Source of the DNA: Oceanispirochaeta sp.
GTDB taxonomy: Bacteria; Spirochaetota; Spirochaetia; DSM-2461
Assembly: GCA_963666275.2 (NCBI GenBank)
Contig: CAXXOA010000002.1
Span: 1,888,001-1,952,000 of the forward strand
Direction: 5' to 3'
Length of the DNA stretch: 64,000 bases
Shown here: piece by piece, positions 24,332 to 55,608 of the stretch
Numbering within the stretch: position 1 is the first letter of the stretch
Layout of the letters: every line of letters starts with the position of its first letter
Made by a program: the position numbers and the translations under genes
Notes under the pieces: generated by a model
Told to the model about the DNA's origin: nothing
Databases searched by the model: none
The model's input: the letters and a program-made list of their open reading frames with translations, nothing else

Positions 24332-24610
24332 TTCCGACCCTCACCCCTTTATCCCCTCTCCCACGAGGAGAGGGATTTTGATGAAACAACCCTACAGACT
24401 GTTCTCTTCTAGCATAAGAATTTCTCTCTTGGATAAAAAACAAATTTCTTTCTCACCTCGCCGTGTGGGAGAGGGGCCGGGGGTGAGGGTCGGAAGGGTG
24501 AGGAAAAATTGATTGGTTTAAGGTTTGTATAGCAATAGGTTTCAGGGGGATGTGATTAGAATAGCTGAGGGGCCGGGGGTGAGGGTTGGAAAGGAGAAGA
24601 GAAATAGATT
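24332..24610. repeat. Left composite repeat: REPIN/MITE-like inverted pair (24332-24495) plus ~115-bp tail ending in another half-repeat
   Basis: TTCCGACCCTCACCCC.....CCCCTCTCCCAC is inverted to GTGGGAGAGGGGCCGGGGGTGAGGGTCGGAA. The block recurs at 25142-25461. Confidence 0.9.
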
Positions 24611-49343: not shown

Positions 49344-49757
49344 TTAGGGAATCAATGTCAGTAGAGCTTTTTGATAGTCTCTGAAATTTTTCAGTTTCTC
49401 TGTAAGAATTGTCCAGACAATTTTCCAGTCTATGCTGCGGTATTCATGAACCGCAATGTTACGGAACCCCACGGCACCAATCAGATCTTTTGCCAGAGAT
49501 GAAGAAATTATGCCATTTTGTTCCAGAGCCGTAAAAACTTCAGCCATGGTATTGATTCTGCTTTGTCCGTAATCCACCAGCACATGGAGCCCTGCGTCTA
49601 CAGACTGCTGAACAGCCCGTTCCAGGTTGAGAATGATAATATCCTGAATGTCGATGTCTTCTTCCAGCCGGGAGTAATCAAGAGGCTTTTTTTCTTCCAG
49701 GCGCTTAAGGCAACGGCCCAGGGATTCCAGTTTTGCCAGGAGTATTTCAGGTTCCAT
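49344..49757 (-). CDS. hepT: HEPN RNase toxin (DUF86, type VII TA)
   Basis: RX4HXY motif GFRNIAVHEY, followed by IDWKIVW. Confidence 0.9.
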   Translation of the reverse strand: MEPEILLAKLESLGRCLKRLEEKKPLDYSRLEEDIDIQDIIILNLERAVQQSVDAGLHVLVDYGQSRINTMAEVFTALEQNGIISSSLAKDLIGAVGFRNIAVHEYRSIDWKIVWTILTEKLKNFRDYQKALLTLIP

Positions 49758-50148
49758 GGAGGCTTTTCTCAATCCTTTTTTTCTGCATTTCCATCAATTG
49801 GGGCATAAAATCCGTGCGGAAGTCTATAGCTTTAATCAAGTGTTCCGCCAGTTCCCGGGAATTCCCTTTTATCCTGATACCCTTTGTCAAAATCTTATAG
49901 TGGATGACTCCTTCCGCTTTGTTCAGATCTATCAGGTCTATATCCCTTGTCAGCAGGATCTGGAGTTCTGCTGACATATTCAGAATAGTCCTGGAATCCA
50001 GTTCTTTAAAGGAGATAATCGCAATGTCAATATCACTGGCCGGGCCGAGAGCATCTTCTGCTGCGGATCCGAAGAGTAAGACTGAGGTTATGTCTTCTTT
50101 TGGGCTGAAGTAGCTTGTCAGGTGTTTGATAATCCGCTGCCGGTTCAT
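49747..50148 (-). CDS. mntA: Minimal nucleotidyltransferase antitoxin
   Basis: GSX10DXD motif FGSAAEDALGPASDID; DIDLIDL. Confidence 0.9.
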   Translation of the reverse strand: MNRQRIIKHLTSYFSPKEDITSVLLFGSAAEDALGPASDIDIAIISFKELDSRTILNMSAELQILLTRDIDLIDLNKAEGVIHYKILTKGIRIKGNSRELAEHLIKAIDFRTDFMPQLMEMQKKRIEKSLHGT

Positions 50149-50569: not shown

Positions 50570-50623
50570 ATGAACAAAGAATTAATCATACTTGAGCAGA
50601 TACAAAATAATCCTCATTTTAAC
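50570..50623 (+). pseudogene. 5' fragment (18 codons) of the MarR-type regulator, truncated at a repeat
   Basis: MNKELIILEQIQNNPHFN matches the start of 50668-51207. Confidence 0.8.
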
Positions 50624-50658
50624 CCTCTCCCCCGGCCCCTCTCCCAGAGGGCGAGGGG
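50621..50658. repeat. CCCTCACCCC-family palindromic repeat
   Basis: AACCCTCTCCCCCGGCCCCTCTCCCAGAGGGCGAGGGG. Confidence 0.85.
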
Positions 50659-50667
50659 TGTGTAGTT

Positions 50668-51207
50668 ATGGATAAAGAACTGATTATTCTTGAACAAATT
50701 CAAAACAATCCTCATGTTAACCAGAGGGACCTGGCTACGGTTACTAAGGCGTCCCTTGGGATGACTAATGCTATTCTGAAGCGGTTTGCTGAGAAAGGGC
50801 TGATTACGATTAAGAAGATAAATAATCGGAATATCCGTTATGCTTTGACGGCGGAAGGGATGGAAGAGATTAATCGGCGGTCCTGGGGGTATTTTAAACG
50901 GACTATTAAGAATGTGGTGGATTATAAAGATGCTATCAGTGAAGTGATACGTCAGGCTAAAGAAAACGGATATAAAGGTATCCAGTTGGTTGGCTCCAGT
51001 GATTTTGATTTTATTGTGGAACATCAGTGTTACAAAATCGGTATTGATTTTAAATGTATAGAAGGTTTTGAAGACTCTGCTTCGGACGGTGGTATTCTGC
51101 ATGGAACTGAAGGCTGGTATAGCTTTGTTGCGGAAACCTTGGATACCAGGTCGTTTCAAGAAGAACAATCCGATGAGTTTTATCTGAAACGACTCATTTT
51201 GGGATAG
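50668..51207 (+). CDS. Winged-helix regulator (MarR, EPS-associated type)
   Basis: NQRDLA....SLGMTN.ILKRFAEKGLI, RYALTAEG; upstream of a glycan locus. Confidence 0.88.
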   Translation: MDKELIILEQIQNNPHVNQRDLATVTKASLGMTNAILKRFAEKGLITIKKINNRNIRYALTAEGMEEINRRSWGYFKRTIKNVVDYKDAISEVIRQAKENGYKGIQLVGSSDFDFIVEHQCYKIGIDFKCIEGFEDSASDGGILHGTEGWYSFVAETLDTRSFQEEQSDEFYLKRLILG

Positions 51208-51249
51208 ATTCCTGATTCTTATGAATTAGAATTATATCAGAGGTAGTTT

Positions 51250-51486
51250 ATGCATACTTTGAAGATTAAAGTTAAAGACAGCGTTTATGATAAAGTTCAG
51301 TATTTTCTTGAGAATTTACCCAAGGATGATGTTGAGGTTGTCTCTGATGATATAGTTTCTGATTCCAGCGAGAGTATTGCAACGACTGGTTATGGAAAAG
51401 CATTTATTAAAAAGTGGTCTGGAATCATTTCTGAAGACAGCGTTGATTTTTCCAGAATTGATTATTTGTCAGAAAAATATAAGTGA
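51250..51486 (+). CDS. Putative antitoxin
   Basis: 78-aa acidic ORF ending YLSEKYK, overlapping the PIN gene. Confidence 0.7.
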   Translation: MHTLKIKVKDSVYDKVQYFLENLPKDDVEVVSDDIVSDSSESIATTGYGKAFIKKWSGIISEDSVDFSRIDYLSEKYK

Positions 51487-51893
51487 TGAGAGTCCTTTTT
51501 GATACGAATATAATCCTGGATGTTCTGTTAAAACGGAAAGCATTTTATGATGACTCATGCAGGTTGTTTGAACTAGTTGATTGTGGGAGTTTTGAGGCTT
51601 ATTGTACTGCCAGTTCAGTTACAGACTTGTTTTATATTGTAAGAAAAGAAGTCGGACGGGATAAGACTGTTTTAATGTTGAAAGATTTGGTTCAGGTGGT
51701 ACCGGTTGTCGCTGTTGATCAAAATGTTGTAAATGAGGCTCTAGAATCGGATTTGAAAGACCTTGAAGATGCGGTTCAAACATTTTCTGCAATAAGAAAT
51801 GGGCTGGACTTTATTATCACACGAAATAAAAAAGATTTTAAAGGTGTTGATTTAGCTGTTTTAACACCGGAAGAAGTTTTGAATAATAAATAA
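51483..51893 (+). CDS. PIN domain protein (VapC-like toxin)
   Basis: VLFDTNIILD, DLEDAVQ, IITRNKKDF. Confidence 0.9.
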   Translation: MMRVLFDTNIILDVLLKRKAFYDDSCRLFELVDCGSFEAYCTASSVTDLFYIVRKEVGRDKTVLMLKDLVQVVPVVAVDQNVVNEALESDLKDLEDAVQTFSAIRNGLDFIITRNKKDFKGVDLAVLTPEEVLNNK

Positions 51894-51903
51894 TCCTCAT
51901 GTT

Positions 51904-51946
51904 AACCCTCACCCCCTCAATCCCCCTCTCCCAGGAGGAGAAGGGG
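51904..51946. repeat. CCCTCACCCC-family palindromic repeat
   Basis: AACCCTCACCCCCTCAATCCCCCTCTCCCAGGAGGAGAAGGGG, preceded by a MarR gene fragment (51888-51906). Confidence 0.85.
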
Positions 51947-52108
51947 AGGAATGTAGAGGATTCTTTTGACATGGATAAAGAACTGATTATTCTTGAGCAG
52001 ATACAAAATAATCCTCATGTTAATCAAAGGGATCTGGCTACTGTTACTAGAGCATATTTGGGTATGGCCAATGCGATTTTGAAGCGGTTTGCTGAGAAAG
52101 GGCTGATT

Positions 52109-52336
52109 CGGCCTTTGCTCGCAATTTATTGCGGGCAAGTCAAACGTGCCGCATTGCGGCGACCTATACCGAACAAGGTTCTCTGAGCTTGCTCAGAGGT
52201 TCTTATACGGCCTTTGCTCGCTAGCGAGCATAGCATAAATGCCACGATAGTGGCGACCTCGAGATCGTTCCTCACTTCGTTCCGGTACGACTCGGACTCG
52301 AACAAGGTTCTTCGAGCTTGCTCGAAGGTTCTTATT
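52109..52336 (+). mobile_element. Two tandem structured mini-elements (52109-52207, 52208-52336)
   Basis: Absent from the intact paralog. Each starts CGGC and ends GGTTCTTAT(A/T), with three hairpins. Confidence 0.8.
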
Positions 52337-52424
52337 ACTATCAAGAAGATTAATAATCGGAATATCCGCTATGCTTTGACGGCGAAAGGGATGGAAGAGA
52401 TTAATCAGCGGTCCTGGGGATATT

Positions 52425-52623
52425 CGGCTTTGCTCTCAATTTATTGTGAGCAAGTCATATGTGCCGCAAAGCGGCGACCACTACCGAACAAGGTTCTTCA
52501 AGCTTGCTTGAAGGTTCTTATTCGGCTTTTGCAGACTATTTATAGTTTGCAATTGTTATGAGTCGCTTAAGCGACCTCCTTAACCGAACATCAGGAATCC
52601 ATAATTATTGGATTCCTGATATT
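52425..52623 (+). mobile_element. Two tandem structured mini-elements (52425-52522, 52523-52623)
   Basis: Inserted after TATT and both end in TATT; the second is diverged in sequence but keeps the same hairpins. Confidence 0.8.
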
Positions 52624-52913
52624 TTAAGCGGACTATTAAGAATGTGGTGGATTATAAAGATGCTATCAGCGAGGTGATACGCTAGGCTAAAGCTGATGGG
52701 TATGAAGGGATTGCTCTTGTTGGAGAGAGTGACTTTGAGTTTATTGTTGAGCATCAGTGTTATAAAATGAATATTCCATATAAATTTATAGAGAATCCAG
52801 AGGGTAACTCTATAAAGGGATGGTACAGGTTCATTGCTGAATCTGCACCATCCGAATCTCTGAAGAGAGAACTGAATAATAAGTTCAACTTAAAAAGATT
52901 AATTGTTAGTTGA

Positions 52914-53198
52914 AGTGATTTTGATTTTATTAGGCAAATGCTCGCAATTTATTGCGAGTAAATCATAATTGCCGCTTTGGGGCGGTCATGACTTAACAAG
53001 GTTCTTCGAGCTTGCTCGGCGGTTCTTATCATTGAGCATCTTTGCTACAAGATGAGTATGCCATTTATTTCTTTGGAAGATCCTGAAGATGGTTTGTCAT
53101 CCGAACAATATCGATTTATTGCAGAGACTTTTGAAACTAATGGTTTGAAAGAAGAACTTGCTGATGAGTTTTTTTTAAAGAGGTCGATTATAGGGTAA
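52914..53198 (+). pseudogene. Third MarR-type copy, 3' fragment with one insertion
   Basis: SDFDFI|IEHLCYKM..RFIAET..DEFFLKRSIIG matches the C-terminal part of 50668-51207. Confidence 0.8.
52932..53030 (+). mobile_element. Fifth structured mini-element
   Basis: After TATT; TGCTCGCAATTTATTGCGAGTA ... AACAAGGTTCTTCGAGCTTGCTCG..GGTTCTTATC. Confidence 0.8.
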
Positions 53199-53441
53199 TA
53201 TTCTTTAAATTATTATCCTGAATATTAGGGATATTATGATAAGTGAGGGGAATACTAAAAAAGTGAAAGGTTTATATTGTCAAATTATAGAAAAAATACT
53301 TTAAATTCATCACTTGAAGAGCTATCAGGTGATTGTCTTTTAAGAAGATTTTGAATTGGGAAAAATATTATCTAATTGTTGAAATATAATTTATTTTGAG
53401 ATATTTGAATATTTATAGAGAAGAAGGTAGGTGTAAAGGTT

Positions 53442-54440
53442 ATGTTAAAGAATTCGACTATTTTAATAACTGGAGGAACTGGTTCATTTGGTCATAAATT
53501 TATTGAAATGACTTTAGAAAAATATAATCCAAAGAAAATAATCATATATTCAAGAGATGAAATGAAGCAGTGGAATATGGCAGCGAATTTTAATAATGAT
53601 CCTCGATTAAGGTTTTTTATAGGTGATGTAAGAGATAAAGAAAGACTTTATAGAGCATTAGATGGGGTGGATTATGTTGTACATGCTGCTGCTACAAAAA
53701 TTGTTCCAACAGCTGAGTATAATCCTTTTGAATGTATCAAAACAAATATTCATGGTGCTATGAATCTTATTGATGCTTGTATTGATAAAAACATTAAAAG
53801 AGTTGTTGCATTAAGTACTGATAAGGCATGTAATCCTATTAACTTATATGGTGCTACAAAACTTGCCTCTGATAAGGTATTTGTAGCTGGAAATTCTTAT
53901 TCTGGAGAACATCGAACTAGATTTTCTGTTGTACGTTATGGAAATGTTATGGGTAGTAGAGGTTCTGTTATACCTTTTTTCATGAACAAAAAGAAAGAAG
54001 GGACACTACCAATTACTGATGAGAGAATGACTCGTTTTATGATAACTCTGGATCAGGGAGTTGAACTGGTTTGGACTGCTTTTGAAGATGCTGAAGGCGG
54101 AGAAATCTATGTTAAGAAGATTCCTTCCATGAAAGTTACAGATCTTGCAAAAACTATTGCACCGGAAGCTGAATTGGAATATGTAGGTATCCGTCCTGGT
54201 GAAAAACTTCATGAAATCATGATAAGTGTTGAAGATGCCATGTTTACTTATGAATACGATGATTATTATAAAATTCTTCCTGCTATACATGAATGGTATT
54301 CAGATGAAAACAGAATCAAGGATGGAAAAAAGGTGCCCGAAGGATTTTCCTACTCAAGTGACAACAATCAGGAGTGGATGGAAAGTCGGGAGTTATCCAG
54401 TTGGATTGAGAGTGAATTCGAAAAGATGGTAAAGGTCTGA
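53442..54440 (+). CDS. pseB: UDP-GlcNAc 4,6-dehydratase (inverting)
   Basis: GGTGSFG, YSRDEMKQ, ALSTDKA.NPINLYGATK, RYGNVMGSRGSV, GIRPGEKLHE. Confidence 0.95.
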   Translation: MLKNSTILITGGTGSFGHKFIEMTLEKYNPKKIIIYSRDEMKQWNMAANFNNDPRLRFFIGDVRDKERLYRALDGVDYVVHAAATKIVPTAEYNPFECIKTNIHGAMNLIDACIDKNIKRVVALSTDKACNPINLYGATKLASDKVFVAGNSYSGEHRTRFSVVRYGNVMGSRGSVIPFFMNKKKEGTLPITDERMTRFMITLDQGVELVWTAFEDAEGGEIYVKKIPSMKVTDLAKTIAPEAELEYVGIRPGEKLHEIMISVEDAMFTYEYDDYYKILPAIHEWYSDENRIKDGKKVPEGFSYSSDNNQEWMESRELSSWIESEFEKMVKV

Positions 54441-54453
54441 TTGAGGGAATATT

Positions 54454-55608
54454 ATGATACCGTACGGAAGACAGAGTATTACAGATGAAGATATCCTTTC
54501 GGTTGTAAATCAATTGAAATCAGACTTCCTGACCCAAGGTCCGGCTATAGTCAAGTTTGAAGAAGATATTTGTCGCTATACTGGTGCTGAATATTGTGTT
54601 GCACTTGCAAATGGGACGGCAGCTTTGCATTTGGCTGTCGCCGCACTAATCTCAACTGGAAGAATACTGTCTGGTTCAGAAGGTATTACAACGCCTATTA
54701 CCTTCGCTGCTTCTTCCAATGCTATGTTGTATAATGATATTACACCCCGATTTGCTGACATCGATGAAAACACATATAATATTGATCCCAGTGAAGTAAT
54801 GAAAGGGATTAATGAGAAAACATCATTACTGATACCTGTTCATTTTGCTGGACAGGTTGCAGATATGGAAGTTATTTCAGAATTGGCCCGGTCAAATAAT
54901 TTGTCGGTGGTTGAAGATGCAGCACATGCAATAGGCTCAGATTATAAAAACGGGAAAAAGGTTGGTTGCTGTTGCTATTCTGATATGACAATTTTCTCCT
55001 TTCATCCGGTAAAAACGGTAACAACTGGAGAAGGGGGTGCTATCACCACCAATTCTAAAGAGTTGTACGAAGCTCTCCTTTTGTTACGATCTCACGGCTT
55101 AACTAAAGATCCAAGTAAACTCAAGGCTAATCCAGGTCCTTGGTACTACGAAATGCAAGAATTAGGTTTCAATTATCGCCTTACAGATATTCAGGCTGCT
55201 CTCGGAAGTTCTCAGTTAAAACGTCTAGATGAGTTTAAAGCAAGAAGACGGGATATTGTTTCGAAATATAATGATGCATTTCAATATCTGGATTGGTTGA
55301 AAACGCCTTATGAGGCTGATGGTCTTTCATCTTGTTTTCACCTGTATGTTGCCTGGTTCGATTTAGCAAAATTGAAAATGAACAGAAAGCAGTTGATGGA
55401 GATGTTGAGAGAGAAAGGTGTTGGTACTCAGGTTCATTATATACCTGTATATTCTCAGCCATACTATATTAATAAATACGGTGATCAGAAAGATAAATTC
55501 CCTGTTGCCGAGGATTATTATGCAGGGTGTCTGAGTTTACCTCTTTTCCCTGCTATGATAGATGAAGATGTTGCTAAAGTTATTGATGTTGTCTCAGGAC
55601 TGATGTAG
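54454..55608 (+). CDS. pseC: UDP-4-amino-4,6-dideoxy-AltNAc transaminase
   Basis: IPYGRQSI, LTQGP, EDAAHA, FSFHPVKTVTTGEGG, LGFNYR, QVHYIP. Confidence 0.93.
   Translation: MIPYGRQSITDEDILSVVNQLKSDFLTQGPAIVKFEEDICRYTGAEYCVALANGTAALHLAVAALISTGRILSGSEGITTPITFAASSNAMLYNDITPRFADIDENTYNIDPSEVMKGINEKTSLLIPVHFAGQVADMEVISELARSNNLSVVEDAAHAIGSDYKNGKKVGCCCYSDMTIFSFHPVKTVTTGEGGAITTNSKELYEALLLLRSHGLTKDPSKLKANPGPWYYEMQELGFNYRLTDIQAALGSSQLKRLDEFKARRRDIVSKYNDAFQYLDWLKTPYEADGLSSCFHLYVAWFDLAKLKMNRKQLMEMLREKGVGTQVHYIPVYSQPYYINKYGDQKDKFPVAEDYYAGCLSLPLFPAMIDEDVAKVIDVVSGLM

Follow-up and report, generated by a model that had tools for sequence, protein, structure and literature searches.

Five short units in a 64,000-nucleotide stretch of Oceanispirochaeta sp. 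DNA (the window; contig CAXXOA010000002.1, positions 1,888,001 to 1,952,000 of the forward strand) are almost certainly copies of a gene-less family of mobile DNA, inserted into two broken copies of a MarR-type gene. An earlier note on this DNA had proposed a non-autonomous element that folds as a single strand and is moved by a factor acting in trans. Relatives found elsewhere, empty sites in phages and the comparison with Rfam, where no family exceeded the gathering threshold in the units and the passing tRNAs and one riboswitch all lay outside them, uphold this proposal.

Five units at three insertion sites

The letters of the window confirm all five units where the note had placed them. 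In the register used here, which cuts after AT, coordinates stand one base to the left of the earlier ones, and both registers are allowed. All units lie on the + strand. Unit 1 (52108 to 52206, 99 nucleotides (nt)) is followed head to tail by unit 2 (52207 to 52335, 129 nt), and unit 3 (52424 to 52521, 98 nt) by unit 4 (52522 to 52622, 101 nt), while unit 5 (52931 to 53029, 99 nt) stands alone, so that five units occupy three insertion sites. Global alignment of the intact paralog (50668 to 51062) with the decayed copy (51971 to 52792) shows two gaps, of 228 (99 + 129) and 199 (98 + 101) bases, and thus bears out the exact empty sites reported before. The empty site of unit 5 is seen in two paralogous stretches, and best in an intact gene of G808 (L517, about 1268-1320), where both flanks are matched; G808 and G815, a same-genus genome and a relative, also carry copies. 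One G808 copy stands at the same site as units 3 and 4, within a fragment of the same gene.

Pairwise identity ranges from 54/89 to 83/98 (61-85% over aligned bases), and the five are therefore, by their sequences, different members of the family rather than one duplicated copy. Public contigs from three runs match 50910 to 52658, and one run also 52640 to 53440, with no differences; this argues against an assembly slip at the units, the three runs being one sample, possibly the source itself, and so not independent support. In line with the covarying stems of the earlier note, both sides have changed in 14 of the 33 pairs of the five-unit alignment, a number that 0 of 500 shuffles reach (4.2 +/- 1.7), slid controls giving 0 to 4. 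Folded as top-strand DNA, the window units have z scores of -2.1 to -8.3, each against 200 shuffles.

Architecture and covariation of the family

The units of the family share the layout A|T-stem A-AA-C-stem B-A|T, in which stem A is closed by TT/AA and a single C leads to stem B, with AAG/CTT at its base. A circular form of such a unit would be a dumbbell. Unit 1 follows this layout with a TTCGG/CCGAA stem A enclosing the first two hairpins, then C, then a stem B ending CTT-AT. Unit 2 has about 35 nt extra within stem A, unit 4 has a variant stem B of 12 perfect pairs, and in unit 5 stem A closes with TTAGG/CTTAA and the tip of stem B has partly decayed. In all window units stem B pairs down to the unit end, through AAG/CTT or, in unit 4, ATC/GAT. 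The three hairpins described before do exist, but hairpin 3 is the tip of the longer stem B, and hairpins 1 and 2, which stem A may or may not enclose, do not belong to the family core: the window units have stem A enlarged to a three-way fold, and in Clostridia and in Patescibacteria-like contigs it is a short hairpin. The additional piece of unit 2 (window 52255 to 52300) folds by itself, has a weak match (E 3e-4) at G000:C1:2461024-2461065 in the genome holding the window (G000, 5.27 Mb), and may be a nested piece of another repeat.

Conservation at the base of stem B is there by construction, the search pattern having fixed it. Stem B variants beside known units nevertheless keep the pairing, as ATC/GAT, as AAA/TTT or in stems without the GTT/GTT bubble. 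Stem A was assessed in 33 segments whose left end is set by the preceding unit, which avoids circularity, mis-parsed rows included. Positions 3 and 4 are paired in 29 of 33 segments each, with four different pair types, and positions 3-5 form 61 Watson-Crick pairs out of 99 as against 29.4 after shuffling, a value that 0 of 2000 shuffles reach. The covariation score of the family, to which 53 of the 69 short units listed contribute, is 0.341 versus 0.109 in shuffles (0/500), kinship being known to inflate such scores. As stated earlier for the window, terminal inverted repeats are lacking: no perfect one of 5 or more bases occurs in 126 units (the 5 of the window and 121 of the family).

Relatives in other genomes, metagenomes and phages

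The covariance-model search that the earlier note had called for shows that the family is not confined to this genome. A model built from 53 non-window units (R1) returned three window units only from the window genome (E 0.002-0.013), and among 60 more genomes from one clostridial family it found copies in 7. Because R1 holds no window sequence and yet returns nothing but window units in this genome, it ties the long window form and the short form into one family. A window-type covariance model found copies in 1 of 40 relatives (G808); with model, pattern and follow-up searches taken together, G808 has 4 copies and G815 has 1 clear copy and 1 weak 33-nt candidate. Within the 5.27 Mb genome, nhmmer, blastn, two covariance models and a structural descriptor gave no further copies beyond the locus, the strict form of the descriptor matching 3 window units and 3 chance-like places, and nothing when the genome was reversed. 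In 400 other genomes of the phylum BLAST yielded weak matches only (E above 9e-4), and in plasmids and phages weak partial ones.

The exact stem B pattern occurs in 7 stretches of clostridial genomes and in at least 122 metagenome stretches; the metagenome part of the family is drawn from the matches listed, and the derived family counts rest on those. From Clostridia genomes, phages and metagenome contigs, 150 distinct matches have enough flank. One fixed rule called the left end in 139, with lengths from 36 to the 80s (median 48 bases), and not in the other 11. Among 401 genomes from the clostridial order, pattern searching identified 2 carriers. Among viral records, 25 of 26 matches to a loose pattern were chance-like, a second pattern gave 20 matches of which only the L036 record looks real, and a third gave 120, of which a few are real phage copies. 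Ten neighbouring proteins were looked up; one falls in a cluster with Patescibacteria names and the others gave no taxon, and for the remaining metagenome contigs the term Patescibacteria-like is a presumption.

The first clostridial matches stand mostly at genes for tRNA-Gln or tRNA-Arg or at repeated ends of these genes; copies also occur in unrelated genes, in phages and in one apparent integrative element. Several neighbourhoods hold further structures. After tRNA-Gln, six loci (L022, L023, L024, L026, L084 and L092) carry a different segment of about 75 nt with three hairpins, which starts with the tRNA 3' end and ends in a T-arm mimic finishing TTAT, where the two-hairpin units insert; in L026 a Mrr restriction gene lies between two arrays of this segment type. 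In L036 (689-750), stem A is apparently a long inverted copy of the start region of the neighbouring gene, which suggests that units can take up host sequence. L100 (5877-8350) holds what looks like a diversity-generating retroelement, made up of a reverse transcriptase, a small accessory gene and a repeated segment; 400 bases away, a 791-codon frame has at its 5' end a cluster of units facing both ways.

Target site, empty sites and arrays

Empty sites in phages show that insertion takes place at AT without loss or gain of target bases. In a first, clostridial-type phage, L330 and L335 are filled and L331 reads straight through, an exact empty site that shares only TTAT(T), with a neighbouring protein 98% identical; the unit is present in 4 of 80 related loci. 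In a second phage, L410 and L412 are filled and L411 and L413-L416 empty, the site being near-exact with a few differing flank bases; here the unit is present in 2 of 80 loci, at the foot of a terminator-like hairpin.

Precise insertion, as claimed before, was thus found again, but the proposed target (T/G)ATT was not: the core is AT alone. In 114 distinct left flanks, position -1 is T in 85, C in 19, A in 10 and G in 0, and -2 is T in 88, as against 27% and 32% T in controls, although AT-rich flanks could bias the left-end rule toward T. TTAT is found in 69 of the 114. On the right, position +1 after TTAT is T in 60 of 105, A in 28, C in 14 and G in 3, and +2 is T in 66 of 105 (34% in controls, p 2e-9). 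G is tolerated at the target, since GAT is found at window site 1 and at L333. The invariant core is accordingly AT, in a T-rich and G-poor context, with TTAT|TT preferred.

The right end of a unit, CTTAT, rebuilds this target, and therefore copies stack head to tail, as the note had supposed; 24 of the 139 called units stand directly behind the end of another, and identical tandem copies occur in L098, L100 and L107. A hairpin right before the target AT is not enriched (22 of 115 versus 16.7 in shuffles, p 0.09), tRNA T-arm and anticodon-arm ends in Clostridia and one terminator-like hairpin being among the targets used. Read from the opposite strand, TTAT includes a TAA and CAT becomes ATG. 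Right ends close a long frame on that strand, overlapping its stop codon, in 13 of 123 cases compared with 164 of 7435 control TTAT, left ends are start codons in 6 of 78, and 65 of 121 unit lengths are multiples of three. The family looks selfish: its copies survive in frame, at start and stop codons, at the ends of tRNAs or, as in the window, within spare copies of a gene.

The folded strand

Our results show an asymmetry between the two strands of the units. Among the 121 family units, GC-GNA-GC loops number 38 on the top strand and 0 on the bottom, and tandem GA motifs 66 and 2; motifs of both kinds stabilise single-stranded DNA. The linear DNA fold is more stable on the top strand in 108 of the 121 units and on the bottom in 9. 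The earlier argument from G-U/G-T pairs is weak: G-T and A-C pairs number 7 and 3 in the window units, and the asymmetry is absent from 53 family units (12 versus 12); the strand signal comes from the loop motifs and not from G-T pairs. We read this as selection acting on the folded top strand of DNA. Of the two routes that the note had left side by side, single-stranded DNA or RNA, the former is favoured and the latter disfavoured.

The mover and the rival explanations

The mover that best fits these observations is an HUH transposase (Y1, IS200/IS605- or RAYT-like) acting in trans, an assignment that we make tentatively and with a little less than even confidence. It fits best because the units are small, have top-strand hairpins, insert precisely 3' of a T-rich tetranucleotide and contain a candidate guide. 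According to PMC8266576, IS200/IS605 and repetitive extragenic palindromic (REP) systems combine hairpins, a tetranucleotide guide 5' of a hairpin and strand-specific single-strand transfer. By analogy, the top strand would fold when single-stranded, a small enzyme encoded elsewhere would cut at both AT ends, and the cut strand would close into a dumbbell circle with C opposite A at the joint. The circle would then join into one strand of a TTAT target, and replication would fix the insert. The putative guide is ACAA just 5' of the stem B hairpin, which faces TTAT with one C-A mismatch; in unit 4, ACAT faces ATAT.

Several results weigh against an HUH transposase acting on the top strand. As a circle, the unit folds more stably on the bottom strand in 89 of 121 cases and on the top in 30, because the joint is G-T on the bottom and C-A on the top; the energy model probably has no terms for the loop motifs mentioned above. 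An orientation bias toward the lagging-strand template is a feature of IS200/IS605, and local GC skew on the top strand, a crude proxy at such short loci, shows G>C in 23 of 56 locus-strands, C>G in 28 and neither in 5. Guide pairing of the HUH type does not predict the constraint found 3' of the cut. Profiles from the seven Y1 proteins of the genome, narrow profiles run over flanks mostly under 5 kb, gave no match in the loci; when 137 loci (563,685 bases) were scanned for motifs, the Y1 pattern came up once, in a 453-codon frame that does not look transposase-like; and PF01797 (Y1) is present in 1 of the 5 clostridial carriers, all drafts. By eye, no unit-like flanks adjoin the seven Y1 genes. 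No circle or excision joint was found in public contigs, which cannot show rare forms. Units of 23-25 nt also exist, seen only inside arrays, and may be products of slippage.

A mover or parent was sought in other ways as well. Clustering of 524 neighbouring open reading frames returned housekeeping genes. The longer versions with the same ends around a reading frame, which the note had suggested looking for, did not appear: no long copy, and with it no parent insertion sequence (IS), was found among the units without a called left end in the fetched loci, nor in the genome. IS200-like ends in G405 differ from the unit ends, and two opposite copies in G883 enclose no transposase. With one to four copies, however, an element can persist after its mover has been lost, or can be brought in by a phage or an integrative element, and copies were seen in both. 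The seven Y1 genes themselves, similar to each other and RAYT-like (G000:C1 and C2, L202-L208), mostly have a short GGGACGGAGG motif in front, and one gene has a tandem repeat of it.

That the units are gene-less cassettes of an integron-like tyrosine recombinase is an explanation that we hold to be unlikely. The circle, NNNAAC-stem B-ATTNNN, would then resemble attC with ATT in place of GTT, folded as the bottom strand with G-T at the joint, and would recombine with look-alike targets and with the ends of other units. In favour of such cassettes, the first bases of a unit complement those before AAC, like the R' and R'' boxes in a cassette, different units are stacked head to tail, the target is similar to the circle joint on either side, and the preference of the circular fold for the bottom strand (89 versus 30) agrees. 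The genome has a full integron with IntI and AAC...GTT sites, units in Clostridia use the ends of tRNA T-arms and anticodon arms, and all 5 clostridial carriers have tyrosine recombinases. However, GTT is found at the joint in 0 of 126 units, the attC-like span is only 37-73 nt (median 41), and we infer that units of 23-25 nt are too small for a tyrosine-recombinase pair. Extrahelical L-box bases are a feature of attC, and stem B is symmetric, with no extrahelical base, in 115 of 121 units. IntI targets GWT according to bioRxiv 10.1101/2022.09.11.507474, as opposed to the G at +1 in 3 of 105 flanks and at -1 in 0 of 114 found here. Nor does IntI follow the carriers: it was found in 0 of 5 clostridial ones, is absent from the draft of the carrier G815 and occurs in G807, G811 and G813, none of which yielded a copy. 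The integron array of the genome itself gave no unit with nhmmer, blastn and covariance models. The one recombinase near a copy, in L036, was not supported as the mover, two relatives having no nearby unit and one of these being truncated before the site.

Joining by the host, after cutting by a small single-strand nuclease (an Ssn-type GIY-YIG enzyme or a similar solo one) acting beside the hairpins, is quite unlikely too; ligase and repair would complete the insertion, and the element would spread while single-stranded DNA is taken up or replicated. According to PMC11893778, Ssn nucleases cleave single-stranded DNA next to hairpin repeats and in a strand-specific way, copies cluster with other hairpin repeats at the gene in G000, G808 and G809, and one copy (L082) has a GIY-YIG-like frame at a distance of 1.5 kb. 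The GIY-YIG motif is nevertheless present in only 1 of 137 loci, the published SRM motif in 0 of 126 units, and loss-free insertion needs strand transfer, which the passages of PMC11893778 consulted do not show for Ssn. Movement or removal through RNA, by reverse transcription or splicing, with the fold being that of RNA, is very unlikely. It could draw on the reverse transcriptases in attC sites of the genome, which we take to be of the group II intron-like class, on the AT at the right end, and on CTTCGG on the bottom strand of 22 of 121 units; these words are the complement of C-GAA-G triloops and, by the stem reading, close no four-base loop. Copies are opposite to neighbouring genes in 44 cases and in the same direction in 26, lengths divisible by three (65/121) are expected if inserts stay in the message, and Rfam has no family at threshold. 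That the units are not mobile at all, but a host signal (terminator or stability element) or a product of local duplication, is highly improbable. All five genome copies do lie within 930 bases, some tandem copies (L098, L100, L107) are identical, and right ends fall on opposite-strand stop codons (13 of 123 versus 164 of 7435 controls). Yet the window units break a gene and differ from each other, and copies occur in unrelated genes, tRNA ends, phages and an apparent integrative element; the exact empty sites largely refute such a reading, although slippage may account for the identical tandem runs.

Beyond these named enzymes, it is possible, if rather doubtful, that the units represent an undescribed class: single-stranded dumbbells of 25-130 bases, set apart by their shape and a two-base AT core, inserted into one strand by an enzyme that belongs to no known transposase-element pair, with the right end serving as target for cassette-like arrays. 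The mover could then possibly be a host enzyme, because distant carriers share no linked gene. What probability the HUH transposase and its four rivals leave over goes to something not listed here.

The MarR-type gene copies and their surroundings

The locus holds three copies of the gene, all on the + strand. The intact one, which supplied the empty sites (50668 to 51207), encodes a winged-helix protein of 179 amino acids, MarR_EPS-like, that scores 47 bits with TIGR04176, under the cut-off of 88. The second copy (51971 to 52914), a pseudogene by alignment with the intact paralog, is split by units 1-4 and has a further in-frame TAG near 52682. The third (52915 to 53199, ends approximate) is partial, with the 3' part only, and is split by unit 5. 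Since an intact copy remains, the insertions are probably harmless to the host genome. Downstream, pseB and pseC (53442 to 55608, + strand) start a pseudaminic-acid operon, given for context. Surface-sugar loci are often exchanged between lineages, and at the head of this one fragments of the same gene and other hairpin repeats are gathered in G000, G808 and G809. Spare gene copies tolerate inserts, and because such loci are so often exchanged, the five-unit cluster may have filled in a donor lineage richer in copies.

A second hairpin repeat, CCCTC...CCCTCTCCC...GAGGGG, stands at window 50622-50667 and 51906-51955, after the same TTAA in two of the MarR-like gene copies, and also at 24338, 25147, 45333 and 47026, with 26-27 matches across the genome; repeats like it stand before the gene in G808 and G809. 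Together with repeats of the 5' part of the gene, it brackets a PIN toxin-antitoxin pair (51250-51893). Upstream of the locus lies a pair of a HepT-like nuclease and a nucleotidyltransferase (window 49344-50148). On another contig than the window, the chromosomal integron (G000:C1:1032500-1064700, L003 in part) comprises IntI (407 amino acids, 390 bits) and low-GC cassettes that extend over about 30 kb. Their AAC...GTT sites are long, and six of these are split by an opposite-oriented reverse-transcriptase intron-like element.

Significance and comparison with known systems

If our reading is true, these units would rank with the smallest mobile DNAs, and distant bacteria and their phages would have kept a single architecture of the ends. 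Ends and target are defined well enough for a direct oligonucleotide assay, so that the question of what moves gene-less bacterial repeats (bcr1, CGTC-REPs and Rickettsia palindromic elements (RPEs)) becomes testable on a simple case. An enzyme for precise single-strand insertion with a target of 2-4 bases would also be a potentially useful tool. Gene calling in small genomes, on the other hand, is misled by such units, which extend N-termini and overlap start and stop codons.

The literature searched, in which most subscription papers were outside reach, contained no description of this element; nearest in behaviour is bcr1. As summarised in PMC6542083 and PMC3184786, bcr1 and the bcr repeats of the Bacillus cereus group are likewise gene-less, with compensatory changes and a T-rich direct repeat ending TTAT (TTTAT), and a mobility like site-specific recombination has been proposed, the mover being unknown. 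By the same description bcr1 is about 155 bp long, cruciform-like and found in one species group, whereas our units are mostly 36-130 nt, have the AAC linker and occur in distant groups. The Rickettsia palindromic elements and mycobacterial interspersed repetitive units (MIRUs), as far as covered by PMC3733652 and PMC3184786, are tolerated in frame and at gene junctions, a likeness of lifestyle only, with different ends and target. Ssn-related NTS/SRM motifs are strand-specific hairpin repeats across phyla in PMC11893778; the units lack the SRM pattern (0/126) and no associated nuclease gene was found. Unlike miniature inverted-repeat transposable elements, they have no terminal inverted repeats. 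As in attC sites and gene-less integron cassettes (bioRxiv 10.1101/2022.09.11.507474), one arm of the circle joint carries AAC, the bases at the two ends are complementary and arrays are mixed, but the units have ATT and not GTT, no extrahelical base, shorter spans and non-GWT targets, and are present without IntI.

The closest workings are those of REP sequences and of the palindrome-associated transposable elements (PATEs). REPs and bacterial interspersed mosaic elements with TnpA-REP (RAYT), as described in PMC8266576 and PMC3733652, are short gene-less hairpins, often intergenic or in frame, that form tandem arrays, are strand-specific and are presumed to move in trans as single-stranded DNA. 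In contrast, our units carry no GTAG, GGAG or CGTC tag (0/5 in the window and 0/121 in the family, on either strand within 8 nt of an end), consist of two hairpins in one orientation closed by their own ends, and have the joint AT where REPs have C|T; no RAYT gene is flanked by units in 137 loci. PATEs, ends-only derivatives of IS200/IS605, have only two hairpins and no terminal inverted repeats, and insert without loss 3' of a T-rich tetranucleotide, according to PMC7290912. The units likewise have two hairpins, no terminal inverted repeats and no gene, and insertion is precise, but TTAT precedes only 69 of 114 units, with GAT at window site 1, and the target is also constrained 3' of the cut. 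Their two ends share one motif, the junctions lie directly at the hairpin feet, and no parent IS with unit ends was found in the fetched loci. Together, our findings describe a real, mobile and gene-less element, apparently undescribed in print, that works like a REP or a PATE and, by the tests run, is a member of neither.
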